Below are positions 2,202 to 13,775 of a DNA stretch of 64,000 nt, one piece after another. The stretch covers positions 13,391-77,390 of IMG/VR virus record IMGVR_UViG_3300031772_004865; one strand, 5' to 3'. The stretch's first letter is position 1, and every line of letters starts with the position of its first letter. Made by a program: the position numbers and the translations under genes. This DNA is from a virus. The notes beneath the pieces were generated by a model. It made no database searches and had not been told where the DNA came from. It worked only from the letters and a program-made list of their open reading frames with translations.

Positions 2202-2780
2202 TTACTCCTTTTTGAGTCCAGCAAAAGCTAATAATAAAGCATCTGCAATATTGTCATCAATAATTTTCTCTTCTACTACATTACTTATCCATCTCATTAT
2301 TTCTTTTTTCTTATCTTTAGGTTTTGTACCCTTTCCTAAATGAGATTGAAATCCTACTAATTTACGTGCTGTAATAGGAAAGATTATTTTTCTTTCATTA
2401 AATCTATCATACAATTCGGCATAAGCAATTCCCTGTAATGCTCTCAAAAATCCAAAAGTAACTACATTCATCTTTAAAAATGAATTCTCTAATACTAATA
2501 ACATCGTTACTCCTTCGGGATTTGATAATTGTGTTTTTACCTCTTTTCTGATTAACTTTAAAAATGATTCTAAATGAGCATCGTATTTTTCATTTTTATC
2601 TTCTAAATCTTTTGGTAATGTAGGTAATTGTATTATAAATGTTTTTATCCATAATTTCTTTTTAAAAATAGAAATCATTGCGATTCCAGATTTAGTAGCA
2701 GTATCAATAGCAAGACAAAATATATTATCCTGAAGTTTAAATCCAAGATTCTTTTCAAGTTTCTTTAATGATTTAATCAT
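2202..2780 (-). CDS. ruvC: RuvC-like Holliday junction resolvase
   Basis: LAIDTAT.SGIA, VLE, PITARK, DNIADALLLA catalytic pattern. Confidence 0.8.
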   Translation of the reverse strand: MIKSLKKLEKNLGFKLQDNIFCLAIDTATKSGIAMISIFKKKLWIKTFIIQLPTLPKDLEDKNEKYDAHLESFLKLIRKEVKTQLSNPEGVTMLLVLENSFLKMNVVTFGFLRALQGIAYAELYDRFNERKIIFPITARKLVGFQSHLGKGTKPKDKKKEIMRWISNVVEEKIIDDNIADALLLAFAGLKKE

Positions 2781-2970
2781 TTTCTATTTGATTTAAAAAT
2801 CTTTCTATTAATTGTAATTTATTTCCTATTTCTATTAAAATATAACATAAATATCCATTAATTGTATATGTATCTTTTTCCCAAGAATCCCAAATTTTTA
2901 CTTCTATTGTATAATTATTTTGTGCCATCTATCTTCCTTCTCTCTTTTGGATTTAATATTCATTTTTTTA

Positions 2971-3810
2971 TTATTGTGCTTTTCCTTTTTTGTTTATATT
3001 TAATCCTTTAATTTCGTAAGAAGCATCATAATTAATATTATCTCCTTTTGGATAGGGCAATATTTTCCATTTAAGTGCTGCTCTCATTTCTTTCTTTTGT
3101 TTATAATTGCCAAGAAACATCAAATATCGGTGTTTTGGTGTAACTTTTATCGGTTCATAACCATTTTTTATAGCATTTTCTATACTTCCAGTACCTAATC
3201 TATTAAATATTACTTTCCTATGATACATTTTTCCATCTTTTCTAAATTCAATATCCCCACAACCCATTCCAGTATATAACCAATTAAGTGCCTGATAAAT
3301 ATAACCATGATGTCCTTGTCCACTATCAGAATAAGAAATAACTGTTATTGGTTGGGGCAATAACTTTAAACAAGAACTAACAAAAAAAGACAAAGTGTTT
3401 TTTGGTAATAATTCGTTTACAATTAATCGGTTAAGTTCTATACACCGATAATTTCCTAGTAAATTATTTAAAGAATTATTTGCACTCATTCCAAAGGTAC
3501 AAACTCCTTGCAAAATATTATTTTTATTATAAAGACCATAAGAATAAATGATAATAGCAGGAATTCTATGTGCATAGTGTTTATTTAAAAACCACTCATA
3601 AGTTAATTTCTTATCAATATTTTTAACAGAAAAATCTAATTTATTAAAATCATATACTTCTTCTTTACGTTCTTTTTTAATTGGAGCGGAGTTAGCGACT
3701 TGCACGCTACTCTCGGAACTGGAAGTTCCGCATGTCTTTTTCGACACTTCCCCTGCGAATTTAGTTTTAAGTTTTAATAATTCTTCATCACTTAATTTAG
3801 ATAAATCCAT
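2971..3810 (-). CDS. mom: Mom-like (GNAT-fold) DNA adenine hypermodification enzyme
   Basis: HY, GVCTFG, IELNRL, SFFVS, ISYSDSGQGHHGYIYQALNWLYTG, KHRY, LPYPK are typical of Mu Mom-family proteins; start overlaps the polymerase stop (TAATG). Confidence 0.8.
   Translation of the reverse strand: MDLSKLSDEELLKLKTKFAGEVSKKTCGTSSSESSVQVANSAPIKKERKEEVYDFNKLDFSVKNIDKKLTYEWFLNKHYAHRIPAIIIYSYGLYNKNNILQGVCTFGMSANNSLNNLLGNYRCIELNRLIVNELLPKNTLSFFVSSCLKLLPQPITVISYSDSGQGHHGYIYQALNWLYTGMGCGDIEFRKDGKMYHRKVIFNRLGTGSIENAIKNGYEPIKVTPKHRYLMFLGNYKQKKEMRAALKWKILPYPKGDNINYDASYEIKGLNINKKGKAQ
3682..3756 (-). tRNA. Non-canonical tRNA-Gly(UCC)-like element nested in the mom-like CDS
   Basis: 75 nt: GCAGGGG AA GTGT CGAAAAAG ACAT G CGGAA CT-TCC-AG TTCCG AGAG TAGCG TGCAAGT CGCTA ACTCCGC T CCA; canonical arm spacing, paired D/anticodon/T stems, U73, encoded CCA; acceptor stem has 2 mismatches. 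Confidence 0.8.
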
Positions 3811-6800
3811 TAAATTAATCCTCTTCTTTTAAGTTCTTCATTAATTTCTTTTTCGGTAAGATTATCCTGTTTCTTTGTTTTCTTTACTTTAATTTCTTTA
3901 ATCAATCCCAAATCCCAGCCTAATGCTTCAAAAATATTCTCACACTTTCCTATAATAGTCTTATCTATCATTTTCTTCCAATTTATATTTTTTACATGGT
4001 CAAATTGTTCTTCGTTATACGCAAGTACATTTTTATCTATTTCTTTTTCACTTGACTTTTCTTCTTTTTCTCCAGTATCTTTATTCTTCATACTTCTTGT
4101 TGCTCTACGAATTGCTTTTCCAAAAGGTTCTACATACAAATAATAAAATGTATCTCCTGCAACTTTATTAAATCCACATAATTCTTTTGAATATTCTAAT
4201 GCTCTGGTAAAAATAGGAGGAGATTTATAAACTGTAGTATTACTTATTTTACAAGGGAATCCAATTTCTGTAATAGATACGGTCTTAATCGCTTCTTTTT
4301 GTGAAACGATAAATTCTACAATCGCCTCTTGTGATTCATTATCGAGTATTTTATCTATTAATTTAGTTTGAAATTCTTGCATAAATTTACTGCTATCTTT
4401 TCTTTTTGCCTCAATTCCTTTTACTTCTATCTTTAATTTATTATCTTTGGTTCTTAATCTTCCTTTATAATGACAAAGTGCTACAATCAAAATCTGTTCA
4501 TATTTCCCTTCATAATCGAATTCAATTCCTGTTTTTTCTTTATTATATTTTTCTTTTGCCCATTGTTGAACTAATTGATTACATAATTCTAAAGGATTTT
4601 CTTTTGCTATTACCATAACTGAATCGGTATCCAAATAAATTACTTTTACACTACGCTTTCCTAATTCAATTTCAATGTAGTGTAACAAATCTCTAACTAT
4701 TGAAGTAATCGCACTTGCTATATTTACATTATAAAGTCTAAAAACTTTTAATGCAGTTACTCCAAATAATGAATTCACTAATGCTTTTACTGCATCGTAT
4801 TTCATTTGGAGGTCTTTTGCTTCAGGAGTTTCGGGGTCTAATGATTTAAGTTGTTTCTTTAAATAATCTTTTTTGATTATTAACTTCCTGGCTAATGTAG
4901 GTAATAAAGCATTTGAATTTTGTTTAAAATAAACAGGATACTTTACTTCATTAGTTTCTCGGTCAGTAATATCGATTTTCAATTCATTTTTATTAATGGT
5001 TAAATTAGCAATATCTAAACAAAAATCTATAATCGCCATTGGATAGGCAGAATTTCCAGAAATAAATACTTTCCCTTTTCTTCTCATAATTACAAAACCA
5101 TTTTTAACGGTTGGACACCATACTATACCAGAATATAATACTTTCTTTTTTTGCGGAGAATATAAATTAGTATAATGTTCATTATTAAAATAAACATTTT
5201 TTCTTCCATCTTCTTGGGTAGAATATCCTAATAATACTAATAAATATTGAAATCTATCTCTTGCTAATTTATCTTTAGCATTGTAATTATTTTTGTTCTT
5301 ATCTCCATCACCTTTCATTAATTCTTTAAATAAAATATTTAATTGTCTAGTAGATAGTTCTTTTAACATCCATAAGGGAATAACTTTATAATTATCTTCT
5401 AACTGGATGTAAGTTGAATAAAGCCATTTTAAATTCCAATCTAACTCTCCTTTTCTAATTCCTTTTCTATCATATTTAGAAACATTCCATTTCAATTGTT
5501 TAAATAATAAATCTATTTCCTTACAAAATACTGGATTGGCTTTAGAACTTTGACTAATATGATAAATATTACTTTTTACTCTACTATTGCCAAGTTCATT
5601 GTGTCCTTCTGTAATTATCCAAGCATGGATTTTTAATAATTCATCGGAAATAGGATAGTCTTTATTTCTTTTAAAGTTTGCAGAAAGAGGTAAAATAGTA
5701 TGATATGTATGAAAATCTTTAGCAAATGCGATTTGCCAAGAATCTTTTTTAGCTTTTTTATGATTATTATTAACAGTATATTTGTATAGAACTTTATGAT
5801 TCCAAGTTAATAATTGTTTAGTTTTACTATTTTCTAAACTATACATTTCCAAAATTTTAACTTTTTTAATATTTAAATATAGCATTTGTTGAAATTCAAT
5901 TAAATTTCTTTCTACACTAAAGGTTGCTAATTCTTCTTTTTCTTGTAACTCATTATATTTTTTCCATCCATCTATAGAAAGAATTTCTGTATCTTCAGAA
6001 TAGCATCCTAAATCAAGTTTATATAAATTTTCAAATCTTCCAGTATCACATTTTCTATAGGCTCCTTCGAACTCAATTTCTTCAATAAAATCTTCTCCAT
6101 AATGTTTGGAAGGAAGTACTATTCCTTTTGATTTAGCTTCTGATAATAACATCATATCTAATACTTTCGAATTCCAAACAATATCTTCCCAAAGACATTT
6201 TCCCATTCTACGAATTTCATCATAATAAGGGATAATCTTTTTTTCTTTCTCAATTCCAACCATTTTCTTGATGTCTTCTATGTTCTTCTCTTTTATTTCT
6301 TCAGTAATTTGACTAAAATCTGCTTTTTTATTTAAAGGAGTATTTAAGTATTTATGAGCAATAGAATCCAAAGCATAAGATACTTCTCCTTTATAAATTT
6401 TCTTAAATAAATCCAAATAATCTAATATACTTATTCCTGTAGGATAAGGAATCTCGTCTTCTTTCCTACCGTATCTCATCTTACTTATTGGAGAAATTAA
6501 TTCTGCTAATTCTAAATTCCATAATCTTTTTATCCGAGCAGCCAAATAAGGATAATCAAATTGGACAAAATTCCAACCTAAAATAAGGTCGGGTTGAGTA
6601 TCTTTAATATAACGAATTGCATTTTTTAATAAATCATCTTCAGCCATTTCTAATTTATCTTGTTTGTAATCCAATTTTTCAAATATTAAATCTTCAAGAT
6701 AATCTTTAATAAACCAATTTCGGATGGTTTTTTCTAATGAATTATAAATAGAAATTGAAGTAATTGTTTTATCGGGATTAAGATAAGAAGGCAATTCTTT

Positions 6801-7130
6801 TGTTTGAATTTCAATATCAATAAATAAATATTTAGTTGGAGAAGGAAGAATTTCACTTACCTTATCAATCATGTAACGTTTTGGATAAATAACATCTGCC
6901 TCATAAGAAGTATCTGTTTTCCGTCTTTTTATTTCTCCAGGTTCTCTGCAAGTAATTTTCGATACTTTTTTTCCGTCGATTGTTTGATAAATTCCTTTCG
7001 GGTCCTCTTCATAAAAATAAGGTTTAAAAATAGTATCCTGCATAATAGTAAGAGAACCATCCTTCTGTCTATTAAAAAGATATATCTTATTTCCTATATT
7101 GGCTATATTTTTTAAAGGATAATTAAGCAT
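3810..7130 (-). CDS. polB: Family B DNA polymerase with intein
   Basis: Exo motifs FIDIE and GWNFVQFDYPY; motif A YKLDLG^SAYP, motif B KALVNSLFG, motif C YLDTDS, KGIE. Confidence 0.95.
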   Translation of the reverse strand: MLNYPLKNIANIGNKIYLFNRQKDGSLTIMQDTIFKPYFYEEDPKGIYQTIDGKKVSKITCREPGEIKRRKTDTSYEADVIYPKRYMIDKVSEILPSPTKYLFIDIEIQTKELPSYLNPDKTITSISIYNSLEKTIRNWFIKDYLEDLIFEKLDYKQDKLEMAEDDLLKNAIRYIKDTQPDLILGWNFVQFDYPYLAARIKRLWNLELAELISPISKMRYGRKEDEIPYPTGISILDYLDLFKKIYKGEVSYALDSIAHKYLNTPLNKKADFSQITEEIKEKNIEDIKKMVGIEKEKKIIPYYDEIRRMGKCLWEDIVWNSKVLDMMLLSEAKSKGIVLPSKHYGEDFIEEIEFEGAYRKCDTGRFENLYKLDLGCYSEDTEILSIDGWKKYNELQEKEELATFSVERNLIEFQQMLYLNIKKVKILEMYSLENSKTKQLLTWNHKVLYKYTVNNNHKKAKKDSWQIAFAKDFHTYHTILPLSANFKRNKDYPISDELLKIHAWIITEGHNELGNSRVKSNIYHISQSSKANPVFCKEIDLLFKQLKWNVSKYDRKGIRKGELDWNLKWLYSTYIQLEDNYKVIPLWMLKELSTRQLNILFKELMKGDGDKNKNNYNAKDKLARDRFQYLLVLLGYSTQEDGRKNVYFNNEHYTNLYSPQKKKVLYSGIVWCPTVKNGFVIMRRKGKVFISGNSAYPMAIIDFCLDIANLTINKNELKIDITDRETNEVKYPVYFKQNSNALLPTLARKLIIKKDYLKKQLKSLDPETPEAKDLQMKYDAVKALVNSLFGVTALKVFRLYNVNIASAITSIVRDLLHYIEIELGKRSVKVIYLDTDSVMVIAKENPLELCNQLVQQWAKEKYNKEKTGIEFDYEGKYEQILIVALCHYKGRLRTKDNKLKIEVKGIEAKRKDSSKFMQEFQTKLIDKILDNESQEAIVEFIVSQKEAIKTVSITEIGFPCKISNTTVYKSPPIFTRALEYSKELCGFNKVAGDTFYYLYVEPFGKAIRRATRSMKNKDTGEKEEKSSEKEIDKNVLAYNEEQFDHVKNINWKKMIDKTIIGKCENIFEALGWDLGLIKEIKVKKTKKQDNLTEKEINEELKRRGLI
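5052..6005 (-). mobile_element. Intein (318 aa, LAGLIDADG-type) in polymerase motif A
   Basis: Starts CYSEDTEIL, ends VWCPTVKNG...FISGN before extein Ser; block B TWNHKV; endonuclease-like AWIITEG and LMKGDG; removal restores DLGSAYP. Confidence 0.92.
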
Positions 7131-7354
7131 TATTTCCCTTTATTGTATTCTTCAAACGCTTTATATAATCTTCCTTCTTTAGGTAATTTAGTCCAATCAT
7201 TATTTATACTTAATAATAATTGTTTGCATTTATTATCACAATGTAAAGTTTCTTTAATCCCTTTCATTGAAAAACAATTAACCAATTCATTTGGGTCTAT
7301 CGGTAAAATATACTTCCCACAAACATCACAAATTGCTCCTGAACTTGTTATCAT
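7130..7354 (-). CDS. Small Zn-binding hypothetical protein
   Basis: CxxC ... HCxxxC; AGGAG RBS; coupled to the polymerase. Confidence 0.6.
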   Translation of the reverse strand: MITSSGAICDVCGKYILPIDPNELVNCFSMKGIKETLHCDNKCKQLLLSINNDWTKLPKEGRLYKAFEEYNKGK

Positions 7355-7744: not shown

Positions 7745-8355
7745 TTACCACATTGAGTTGATAAATTATTTTTTAGTGGACCATCACATTGACATGGAAT
7801 CCCATCAGTATTATCTACAGGAGTTATTAAATCTTTAGTAGTTGCAATATAATCTGCGGTATAAACACAAAGTTCTAATAAGGTATAATCTTTTATCTCT
7901 TTTTTTATTATTTGAGGAGTCCACAATCCCATGTGAAAACAAATACAATTATTTATTTTTTGTAGTATTTCATCATTAAATTCGTCGCTAATTATAAAAT
8001 AATTATGAGCATATACAGGATGATTTTCATAATCGGCATAAGTTATTTTAGGGTCTTCTTTTGGAGAAGGAACTTTAGCAATATCATGTAAAATAGTTGC
8101 AGATAAAACAATATCTCTATCTATTCCTTTTATTCCCCATCCATCGCACAATCTATTGGCAATATAAATAGTTCTTTTTACATGAATTAATAATCCACTT
8201 TTTATGCAAGTACATGTTGGATGATATTTTCCTGTAGAAGAAGCCATTCCAATAAAAAAATAATTTGGAGTATTATTTAAAGTTGATTTGGTAAAATTTT
8301 TAATTTCTTGATTTTGAATTAAATTAATTTCTTGTTCTAATACATTCTTATTCAT
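7723..8355 (-). CDS. HD-domain phosphohydrolase
   Basis: ASSTGKYH, GLLIH, LHDIAK, H, HMG, AD. Confidence 0.8.
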   Translation of the reverse strand: MNKNVLEQEINLIQNQEIKNFTKSTLNNTPNYFFIGMASSTGKYHPTCTCIKSGLLIHVKRTIYIANRLCDGWGIKGIDRDIVLSATILHDIAKVPSPKEDPKITYADYENHPVYAHNYFIISDEFNDEILQKINNCICFHMGLWTPQIIKKEIKDYTLLELCVYTADYIATTKDLITPVDNTDGIPCQCDGPLKNNLSTQCGNCGLELK

Positions 8356-11889: not shown

Positions 11890-13775
11890 TATATTGGATT
11901 ATTAGTTTCATTTAATTCTTTATTAAAAAAATTAAATTTACAATTTATTCGTTCCGTTTGATTATGTCCAAGAGGGTCTCGCATTTTATCTATAATCCAA
12001 TGACCTTCTATTCCATCACTAGGATTATTATATTGATACCTTGCAGCAAATGAAGCAAATGATTTAATTAAATTCACAGCAAAATAATCATCGTTTTCTT
12101 TTAATTGAGTAAAAACAATGAGGATTCCACCTTTACGCCTCATTTCATCAGCAAGATGTTTAAATACTGATTGTGTCATTGCAAAGTCTTCCCCTGTGTA
12201 CAACCAATCAATTATGGAAAAAGAATTAGGCACAATTTCTATTTGGGTAGGATTATCAATTGATTCTTTTGAAATATAATAATCTTTTTGAGTTAATCCT
12301 AATTTTTGAGCTATTTTTTCGTGTCTACTGCCTGATTCCAAAGAAATGTAATAAGGCATTATCTCATCATTTAATTTTTTGGCGTTTTCTTTAATTTTTT
12401 TGATAATATTCATAGCAATATGTGTTTTTCCTTTACCTGTTGCAGTTCCTAATAAAACAATATCTCCACTATGAAAATTAGCCACATTACTAAAATAAGG
12501 TATTTCGTATTTATATTCTGCAGAAAATTCTTGTGCCTCAGTAACCCATTCTATTTGTTGTTTTAGGTCATAACGACCTCTTCCTCTTCTAACTAATTTA
12601 CCTTCTTTATGTAATTTAGCTAAGTATTTATCTACAATTGCTCTTTTTAAATTAGTATGTTCCATTACATCTTTTGCAGAAATATCGCATTGCAATAATT
12701 TACAACATTCGTAAATCGCTTTTTCTTGAGTGGATTCTTCTGTTTCTTTATAACCTTCCAAACTTCCTATCATGCCTCTAATAGCATTTTGTGGCATGGG
12801 ATTTTCTAATAATTGAGTATTAAAAACACTTAAAGTAAATTCTACTTGCTCGGGAGTTAATTTATTAATAAGTATCCCCCCTAATTTAATAAAAGTATCA
12901 TTACAACATCCTATTAAATTATTATTTTTGAGTTTAGGTAATTCTCCTTTTTGTTGTGTCAAATCTTCTGACATTTTTTCTGTTTCTACCCTATCTACCT
13001 TATTGAGAAATAATAACTTAGATTTGACATTTTCAGGTACATTTTTTATGTCAGAACCAAGATTTACCCAAGTATAATTAAGATTATTAATCTTTGAAGG
13101 AGAACATAAAATTTGACCTCCATCATTCCTAATATCAATAGTAACTCCAGCAATTTTTGAGGTTTGTTTTATTTCTTTATCATACTTAAAAATAAAATGC
13201 TTTCCATGTGGGGTATTTTGAATTAATGTTTTTGATGCAGTTAATTCTTTATAAATTTCTTCGTATTCTCCCGAAGGAGCAACTTTTAAATCAGCATCTA
13301 TTACAGTAATTCCACTAACTTCTCCTGTTCTAATACCTAAATTAAGACCACCTTCTATCCACTTTAAAATCTCCGATTTATCTTTATGAGTTTTATTGGT
13401 CCAATCTTTTTCTAAAGGAATTTTTCCATTTTTAGCAATTGGAAGGAAAGACCAACCATATTTTTGATATAATTCTAACTCTGGATAATTATCTAATTTT
13501 AAAGAATTAATTAAAAAATCCATAACTTCTCCATCAGTCATTGGTTTATTTTCTAATAATCTAACAATATCGTATACATTTCCTTTCCAATTACATTGAA
13601 GACAATAAATCTTATTATCAGTTCCTGGAATAGTTGTGGCAGTTGGTGATTTTCCTTTATATTTATGTTGACCAATATTAGGACAAGTAAATAGGATTTG
13701 TCCTTTCTTTTGGGTCTTCTCAAATTCAGGAAGTTTAATTTTTAAATATTCTAAAAATTTAGTAAAATCAATCAT
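11889..13775 (-). CDS. Primase-polymerase (Prim-Pol) fused to P-loop helicase-like domain
   Basis: N-terminal Zn finger; NLGIRTG..SGITVIDAD, TPHGKHF, IDIR..GG; C-terminal GTATGKGKT, ISLE, IIDW. Confidence 0.85.
   Translation of the reverse strand: MIDFTKFLEYLKIKLPEFEKTQKKGQILFTCPNIGQHKYKGKSPTATTIPGTDNKIYCLQCNWKGNVYDIVRLLENKPMTDGEVMDFLINSLKLDNYPELELYQKYGWSFLPIAKNGKIPLEKDWTNKTHKDKSEILKWIEGGLNLGIRTGEVSGITVIDADLKVAPSGEYEEIYKELTASKTLIQNTPHGKHFIFKYDKEIKQTSKIAGVTIDIRNDGGQILCSPSKINNLNYTWVNLGSDIKNVPENVKSKLLFLNKVDRVETEKMSEDLTQQKGELPKLKNNNLIGCCNDTFIKLGGILINKLTPEQVEFTLSVFNTQLLENPMPQNAIRGMIGSLEGYKETEESTQEKAIYECCKLLQCDISAKDVMEHTNLKRAIVDKYLAKLHKEGKLVRRGRGRYDLKQQIEWVTEAQEFSAEYKYEIPYFSNVANFHSGDIVLLGTATGKGKTHIAMNIIKKIKENAKKLNDEIMPYYISLESGSRHEKIAQKLGLTQKDYYISKESIDNPTQIEIVPNSFSIIDWLYTGEDFAMTQSVFKHLADEMRRKGGILIVFTQLKENDDYFAVNLIKSFASFAARYQYNNPSDGIEGHWIIDKMRDPLGHNQTERINCKFNFFNKELNETNNPI

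Follow-up and report, generated by a model that had tools for sequence, protein, structure and literature searches.

The Mom protein of phage Mu moves glycine from Gly-tRNAGly onto the N6 of adenine in double-stranded DNA, where an on-base rearrangement follows (Silva et al., bioRxiv 2023; Nat Commun 2026, PMC13219725). The enzyme accepts all host tRNAGly isoacceptors, it cannot do without its residues R111 and S124, and the terms 'tRNA-like' and 'phage-encoded tRNA' are absent from the report (Silva et al., PMC13219725). A tRNA-Gly-like locus in mom has been known since 2011 from the ssrA genomic islands of Dehalococcoides, where a conserved 76-bp tRNA-Gly-like 'pseudo-tRNA' lies in the first 150 bp of a mom homologue (McMurdie et al. 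2011, PMC3146451). Here we describe a similar arrangement in a 64,000-nucleotide (nt) stretch of phage DNA (IMG/VR record IMGVR_UViG_3300031772_004865, positions 13,391 to 77,390; hereafter the window). A 75-nt non-canonical tRNA-Gly(UCC)-like cloverleaf is nested in a Mom-family reading frame, between its start codon and its catalytic domain, and the start codon overlaps the stop of a family B DNA polymerase gene (polB). Comparison with relatives indicates that the cloverleaf is a real RNA and supports entry of mom translation from upstream of it, an arrangement in which enzyme and tRNA may compete for the same transcript.

The two loci share a tRNA-Gly-like fold within the 5' portion of a Mom-family gene. 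They differ in that the Dehalococcoides copies sit in bacterial genomic islands and not in a polB-linked phage locus, and the likeness is one of description. The 2011 report proposed neither a function nor a processing conflict (PMC3146451), and it appeared before Gly-tRNAGly was recognised as the donor for Mom. Mu Mom belongs to the same family as the window protein (PF25680), which keeps the catalytic Arg and Ser, and its donor chemistry, a glycyl group taken from charged tRNAGly, explains why a glycine tRNA should travel with a mom gene. Mu differs in having no tRNA of its own and using any host tRNAGly isoacceptor. Our literature search found nothing tying mom-linked tRNA-Gly-like RNAs to the tRNA-dependent chemistry of Mom or to a processing conflict; what is new here is the idea of a switch and a case with no start codon downstream of the RNA.

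A second parallel comes from Staphylococcus aureus, whose non-proteogenic tRNAGly(UCC) species carry TGC or TGT in the T loop, work with the Fem transferases and show poor binding to EF-Tu (PMC7826273). These donors for FmhB, FemA and FemB (PMC7826273) share with the window element the UCC anticodon, the TGC T loop and an aberrant D loop, and represent, outside translation, a glycine donor reserved for a tRNA-dependent aminoacyl transferase. The T stems differ, with U49-A65, A50-U64 and G51-C63 in the window against A49-U65, U50-A64 and A51-U63 in the staphylococcal set of weak EF-Tu binding. The staphylococcal genes are also free-standing rather than nested, and their lineage is reported in staphylococci alone. 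By analogy, the window element appears to resemble these tRNAs in its working, but it is not a member of their group.

In the Escherichia coli thrU-tyrU-glyT-thrT-tufB operon, and in the tRNA punctuation of mitochondria, tRNAs are co-transcribed with mRNAs and freed by processing (RNase P). As here, a single primary transcript holds both tRNA and mRNA and is cut by tRNA nucleases, but in those systems the tRNA lies between coding regions and the mRNAs are left intact, whereas at the present locus it lies between a start codon and a catalytic domain. Transfer-messenger RNA and the 3' tRNA-like structures of plant RNA viruses, which can be aminoacylated, also combine tRNA-like and messenger roles in one RNA, and the viral ones are discussed as switching an RNA from translation to a different fate or back. 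They differ in functioning without excision from a coding region and in not being donors for DNA modifiers.

The cloverleaf within the mom reading frame

The features of the locus, all on the minus strand, are as follows.

3810..7130, minus: family B DNA polymerase gene (polB), 1106 amino acids (aa) (PF00136, E 3.4e-25; PF03104, E 6.5e-16; phrog_262)
3819..3826, minus: purine-rich Shine-Dalgarno-like sequence GAAGAGGA in the final polB codons, 8 nt 5' of the mom ATG
3808..3812, minus: TAATG, in which the polB TAA (3812-3810) and the mom ATG (3810-3808) overlap by one base
2971..3810, minus: entire mom-family open reading frame (ORF), 279 aa, TAA stop (Pfam and PHROG matches)
3757..3810, minus: leader, codons 1-18, MDLSKLSDEELLKLKTKF
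3682..3756, minus: cloverleaf, non-canonical tRNA-Gly(UCC)-like, 75 nt, corresponding to codons 19-43 in frame 0
3721..3723, minus: anticodon TCC, inside the loop CTTCCAG (3725-3719)
3698..3704, minus: T loop TGCAAGT, the triplet TGC replacing TTC
3637..3681, minus: linker, codons 44-58, with no in-frame ATG, GTG or TTG and no stop
3046..3636, minus: Mom catalytic domain, aa 59-255 (Pfam PF25680)

The element stands out from its surroundings by base composition (G+C of 41-47% against ~25%) and gave a four-arm cloverleaf both when folded alone and in a 271-nt context. Its tRNA features include G1-C72, C2-G71, U73, an encoded CCA, the anticodon loop CUUCCAG and the T loop UGCAAGU. The overall architecture is that of a canonical tRNA, with four arms, a 7-nt anticodon loop, U33, a 5-bp T stem and a 7-nt T loop. 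The canonical elbow nucleotides (U8, G18-G19, T54-Psi55-C56) are lacking: the D loop is GAAAAA, with no GG, and positions 8-9 are AA.

Patterns built from the two loops recovered ~21 distinct cloverleaves from IMG/VR, JGI metagenomes and one Streptomyces genome; among 185,579 species genomes the exact loop pattern occurred in one, a Streptomyces. The anticodon loop is invariant in all copies, but it was required by the search pattern and so is not an independent test. U73, CCA, G1-C72 and C2-G71 are kept in every copy, even in those from the first scan, which did not demand them. A covariance model of the family (R1) scored its members at 60-89 bits and the window element at 84.4 bits, the latter match being partly by construction because the window was among the seed sequences.

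Comparative evidence for the RNA lies in its stems. When 16 distinct members are aligned by fitting to the model, pairing holds in 92.9% of cells, compared with 62% for shuffled controls and 33-47% when the partners are slid, and 18 of the 22 pairs covary by changes on both sides. The same signal was seen within the lineage in which the element is nested behind polB, which comprises six AT-rich phages (the window, L028, L029, L102, L077 and L026) and seven mom genes, since L026 has two copies. A gap-free alignment of six nested copies, in all of which the element is 75 nt long and begins at codon position 1, has 94.7% of cells paired against 33-48% when slid, with compensatory double changes at 8/22 pairs. 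Judged by this covariation, the cloverleaf is real and belongs to a family of tRNA-Gly(UCC)-like RNAs that are non-canonical and have TGC in the T loop. Because the encoded residues change wherever the stems covary, the constraint acts on the RNA, with the frame merely kept open.

Two other origins of the conservation were considered and rejected. A cause at the peptide level does not fit residues that vary where the stems covary, nor a peptide that is predicted to be disordered. Descent from an integration site or tRNA fragment does not fit a full cloverleaf with covarying stems.

The Mom enzyme and the entry of translation

The identity of the ORF is well supported by profile searches. Pfam Mom (PF25680) matches aa 59-255 over its full length (profile 1-202 of 202; E 9.8e-36, 123.7 bits against a cut-off of 27.1), and phrog_1384, 'Mom-like DNA modification protein', spans aa 45-275 (E 7.5e-53). 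A profile of the window protein built with 40 homologues matches the structure of Mu Mom (PDB 8bv8, E 5.5e-24). This aligns R128 of the window protein, in an ELNR motif, with the ELNR arginine R111 of Mu, and S141, 13 residues further on and invariant in the 40 homologues, with the Ala of the Mu S124A crystal. On these alignments, the ORF at 2971..3810 (minus) is a Mom-family enzyme with its catalytic residues retained. An AlphaFold2 model of the 279-aa protein (mean predicted local distance difference test, pLDDT, of 85 overall) has a confident Mom fold.

Typical Mom homologues, of ~219 aa, lack an N-terminal extension and begin near window residue 55; an extension is common to three relatives (P0004, P0005 and P0039). 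Within that of the window, AlphaFold2 predicts a helix over aa 8-24 in the leader (pLDDT 74-86) and disorder over aa 23-44 (pLDDT <50), a segment that nearly coincides with the codons of the element. The same phage has a second Mom-family gene (L112, G000:9660-10259, minus), 3.1 kb before the start of the window and outside it, which is 31% identical to the first and has a short N-terminus of its own and no tRNA-like element. The whole genome holds only one such element, and a single element beside a second Mom gene that lacks one fits a donor acting in trans.

The preliminary description of this locus had stated that the sole ATG ahead of the catalytic domain lies upstream of the cloverleaf, that it overlaps the polB stop as TAATG, and that the next in-frame Met falls inside the domain. 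Each of these statements is borne out, and the observation holds even if GTG and TTG are allowed as starts. A scan of the frame gave three starts upstream of or inside the element: the ATG of codon 1 and two GTG codons, 22 and 36, that fall within the cloverleaf. Past the element, the first in-frame ATG, GTG or TTG is the TTG at codon 100, followed by the ATG at codon 108, both within the catalytic domain. The only rare start codon past the element is ATT (codons 44 and 65), in neither case with a Shine-Dalgarno sequence.

The nested relatives extend this picture. Frame 0 is free of stops from the leader ATG to past the start of the domain in 7/7 genes, although the linkers vary in length and sequence, while the other two frames hold 5-19 stops. 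The arrangement AGAGGA-spacer-ATG is kept, with AGAGGA at the same place in L028, L029, L102 and L026. The L026 phage (IMG/VR UViG_3300032069_000005) carries a 224-nt direct repeat (6960-7183 and 8013-8236) before two successive, differing mom paralogues, each unit spanning the last polB codons (Shine-Dalgarno sequence included), then ATG, leader and tRNA-like element; the repeat has the look of a cassette having been gained through recombination at the leader-tRNA module. In the complete 101.6-kb genome holding L077 (IMG/VR UViG_3300033148_004210, minus; element at 4904-4978), polB lacks a stop codon and stays open in frame across the element and into the Mom domain, giving a fused PolB-Mom ORF of 1066 aa with the tRNA-like element as its linker. 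Between the window protein and that of L028, 40/43 positions agree over the N-terminus (leader plus element), whereas overall identity is 42%, the remainder being far more diverged. By these comparisons, a conserved leader-tRNA module has been joined to diverged mom cassettes.

Taken together, the comparisons support the view that translation of mom must enter from upstream of the element, because there is no canonical start after it, the unit of Shine-Dalgarno sequence, ATG, leader and element is conserved and duplicated, polB is fused through the element in L077, and frame 0 is kept open.

Possible competition between enzyme and tRNA, and its alternatives

Based on this, the following mechanism can be proposed. 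Translation of mom would start at the ATG at 3810, using the conserved Shine-Dalgarno sequence in the polB tail and coupled to polB termination, and ribosomes would traverse the nested 75-nt tRNA-Gly(UCC)-like gene to yield a disordered 25-residue linker. Once charged by the host glycyl-tRNA synthetase (GlyRS), the nested RNA would act for Mom-type glycyl transferases as a private carrier of glycine, one that suits the ribosome poorly; by analogy with the described donors, this is the most likely role of the RNA. Its maturation, by RNase P at 3756 and 3' processing at ~3682, would deprive the transcript of its only usable mom start. Since charging needs a free CCA end and Mom starts upstream, a single molecule probably cannot yield the matured tRNA together with an unbroken mom mRNA. 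Enzyme and tRNA would then compete for each transcript, with the split set by ribosome occupancy, which would keep the cloverleaf unfolded, against folding and processing. That this either/or competition is physically real in the window phage is, on the comparative evidence, a serious possibility that we place a little below an even chance.

A stronger form of the proposal holds that the nesting evolved as a kinetic switch that times and limits a toxic enzyme and supplies its donor. While polB-coupled ribosomes were streaming through, the cloverleaf would stay unfolded and Mom would be made; once translation fell, the cloverleaf would fold, RNase P would cut and the mom message would be destroyed. 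The released carrier would serve the Mom enzymes already made, the second paralogue included, and in one relative Mom would even be produced at the replisome as a PolB-Mom fusion. We regard this evolved switch, together with its variant in which a frame-neutral excision is followed by religation, as unlikely. That the arrangement sets the enzyme:donor ratio or limits toxicity, as the preliminary description suggested, is something that we purely infer. In Mu, control of mom is exerted through Com, C and Dam/OxyR rather than by a nested RNA.

Several observations weigh against competition at this locus, and the first concern the acceptor stem of the window copy, the weakest copy in the family. 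The bacterial tRNAGly identity set for GlyRS comprises G1:C72, C2:G71, G3:C70, U73, C35 and C36. The element has G1-C72, C2-G71, U73, C35, C36 and CCA, but its 3:70 pair is A.C, where relatives have A-U or G-C. This A3.C70 mismatch, which occurs in the window copy only among the family, and an accompanying G5.U68 arise from two changes in one codon (CCT to TCC), and only two bases separate the window element from that of L028. With ViennaRNA, the canonical acceptor fold is predicted at -22.4 kcal/mol, 4 above a slipped fold at -26.4 kcal/mol in which G4-G7 pair with C71-C74 and U73-C74-C75 are buried; the canonical acceptor pairs reach a predicted probability of at most 2%. The five nested relatives all fold canonically. 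If the folding predictions hold, tRNA maturation may be poor in this phage, and the balance is probably towards translation because the acceptor stem is weakened. The annotation tools also give the element no support: ARAGORN called zero tRNAs in the window, and Rfam RF00005 matched neither the window element, even at E<=10, nor the relatives' copies. ARAGORN does label three distant family members tRNA-Gly(tcc).

The position and distribution of the RNA across lineages count likewise against a need for nesting. Linkage to mom is itself tight, with 18 of the ~21 distinct elements lying in a same-strand Mom-family ORF or tens of nt from one at most. Two more (L081 and L096) lie just ahead of a fused PF22555 + PF22559 gene, and one (L106), on a 3.3-kb contig, has a canonical tRNA as its neighbour and is part of a tRNA cluster. 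The element overlaps the mom 3' end in another reading frame in L091, L103, L070, L078, L111 and L037, with the mom stop 5 to 95 nt beyond the tRNA 5' end; it lies 33 nt past the mom stop in L108; and it lies ahead of the ATG, in the 5' untranslated region, in L042 (ATG at +7) and L100 (several candidate starts). Since other lineages place the RNA elsewhere around mom, 5' nesting is not needed for function, and it may have arisen as a side effect of compaction or of cassette exchange. Moreover, model R1 found the RNA in 0/24 Mom loci gathered purely by protein similarity, which makes it a trait of a subset of mom genes rather than a general one. Given these 24 loci and the ability of Mu Mom to work with host tRNAs, a private donor is optional. 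On comparative grounds, the shared feature is tight cis linkage and not nesting behind a start codon, and polB coupling is limited to one lineage.

The proposal of a transcript that is either translated or cut is thus upheld in its two premises by comparison, namely upstream entry and stems selected while translated, and weakened by the acceptor slip and the variable position of the RNA. The coupling to polB, read at the outset as replication-linked modification, stands for this lineage, with its TAATG and conserved Shine-Dalgarno sequence, but does not extend to other lineages, which place the RNA without it. In short, the observation as first noted is confirmed and its interpretation is partly supported.

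Among the 3'-overlap lineages, the G+C-richer L037 (1607-1704), L070, L078 and L111 have mom reading through the element in a different frame and stopping 7-22 nt beyond it, such that tRNA 5' maturation would take away the mom stop codon. In L037 and L070, a GGAGG ribosome-binding site of the next gene lies directly at the CCA or a few nt past it. The fused gene at L096 (Streptomyces hokutonensis NZ_JBHYWD010000037.1, 3034-4416 minus) encodes a 461-aa protein joining PF22555 (DAM-like-phage1) to PF22559 (GNAT-phage-like), and has a PAPS-reductase-domain gene as its neighbour. The DAM-like plus GNAT-phage-like fusion may be a second family of tRNA-dependent DNA modifiers.

An alternative to competition is that the RNA is no longer matured in the window phage, and acts as a translated flexible linker, or as a tRNA mimic in cis that tunes mom translation by binding Mom, GlyRS or another tRNA-binding protein, with glycine drawn from host tRNAGly. 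The weakened acceptor with its predicted slip, which sequesters the CCA end, would be expected on this account, as would the linker-like, disordered peptide and the rejection of the element by tRNA finders, and a host supply would accord with Mu Mom, which takes all host tRNAGly isoacceptors (PMC13219725). It fits poorly with the covariation of the stems inside the nested lineage itself and with the retention of U73, CCA, G1-C72 and C2-G71 in all copies; the two-base difference from L028 means that any decay is very recent at most, and the second Mom paralogue favours a donor acting in trans. We think this account fairly unlikely. A different way out of the conflict would be for Mom to start past the element, at a non-canonical codon such as the ATT at 3681 (the first after CCA) or on a processed 3' fragment, which would make tRNA and Mom compatible. 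An ATT or ATA does follow CCA in several copies, the first mom of L026 has an in-frame TTG-ATG 33-36 nt past the element, and G+C-rich relatives have an ATG soon after it (L042 at +7; L100 with ATGs 51 nt downstream); the typical ~219-aa Mom proteins, too, begin near window residue 55. Yet in the polB-linked lineage neither a Shine-Dalgarno sequence nor a conserved start is found past the element, while the upstream unit of Shine-Dalgarno sequence, ATG and leader is conserved and was duplicated whole, and the frame is open in 7/7 genes, the polB fusion included. A downstream start is, on balance, quite improbable.

Finally, both products might come from one transcript if the tRNA were excised like an intron and the leader (3'-OH) and trailer (5'-phosphate) rejoined by a phage RNA ligase. 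Such an excision would be frame-neutral, removing 75 nt, or 72 nt plus CCA, from codon position 1 in six nested copies; a length divisible by three is, however, needed for read-through anyway. A candidate ligase exists, a 223-aa PF09414 RNA-ligase-family ORF with the motif KIDGTNG on the polB/mom strand (G000:12619-13098, within ~12559-13230), and a homologue occurs in the complete genome holding L077, but no ligase match was found in the 86%-complete genome holding L026, phage RNA ligases are usually ascribed to tRNA repair, and no leader-trailer pairing that would hold the ends together is predicted. To our knowledge, there is no bacterial precedent for tRNA excision and religation of an mRNA, and we consider this route highly improbable. 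RtcB (PF01139) was not found in the phage genome by profile search. The RNA-ligase ORF (L115 1441-2112 minus) lies just outside the window and adjoins two ORFs, one SbcC-like and the other resembling an Mre11/SbcD phosphoesterase.

Neighbouring genes and significance

The window polB product is longer than those of its relatives L026 and L029 (1106 aa against 746-771 aa). Some ~300 additional residues, placed after the exonuclease domain (aa 60-257) and before the polymerase domain (aa 694-1013), have a weak phrog_85 match (aa 366-472) as their sole hit and could represent an intein or some other inserted domain. A promoter and terminator scan gave 11 hits against 12.1 expected from shuffles, and hence no excess, and its sole predicted 'terminator' is the antisense of the cloverleaf anticodon arm. 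A blastn search of the locus and element against cultured phages gave nothing useful, the one weak match (E 0.2) being to a Klebsiella phage tRNA-Gly. In L028, a DruA-like ORF (PF14236, E 2e-11) and a PAPS-reductase-domain ORF are found downstream of the mom that bears the tRNA, at 1699-2373 and 2604-3290, and more DNA-modification or anti-defence genes may cluster near this mom.

The use of charged-tRNA glycine by Mom for DNA modification was established only in 2023-2026. The odd glycine tRNAs that are tied to mom genes suggest that many phages supply their own donor, perhaps one shielded from EF-Tu and the ribosome, and nested RNAs of this type are missed by annotation pipelines. The locus described here is a clean case, in which an enzyme's reading frame and a tRNA gene share 75 bases with no alternative start codon. 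This makes it testable whether a bacterial mRNA can serve at once as message and as tRNA precursor, with ribosome and RNase P in competition for it. If true, this would be a novel route for the control of a toxic DNA-modifying enzyme.

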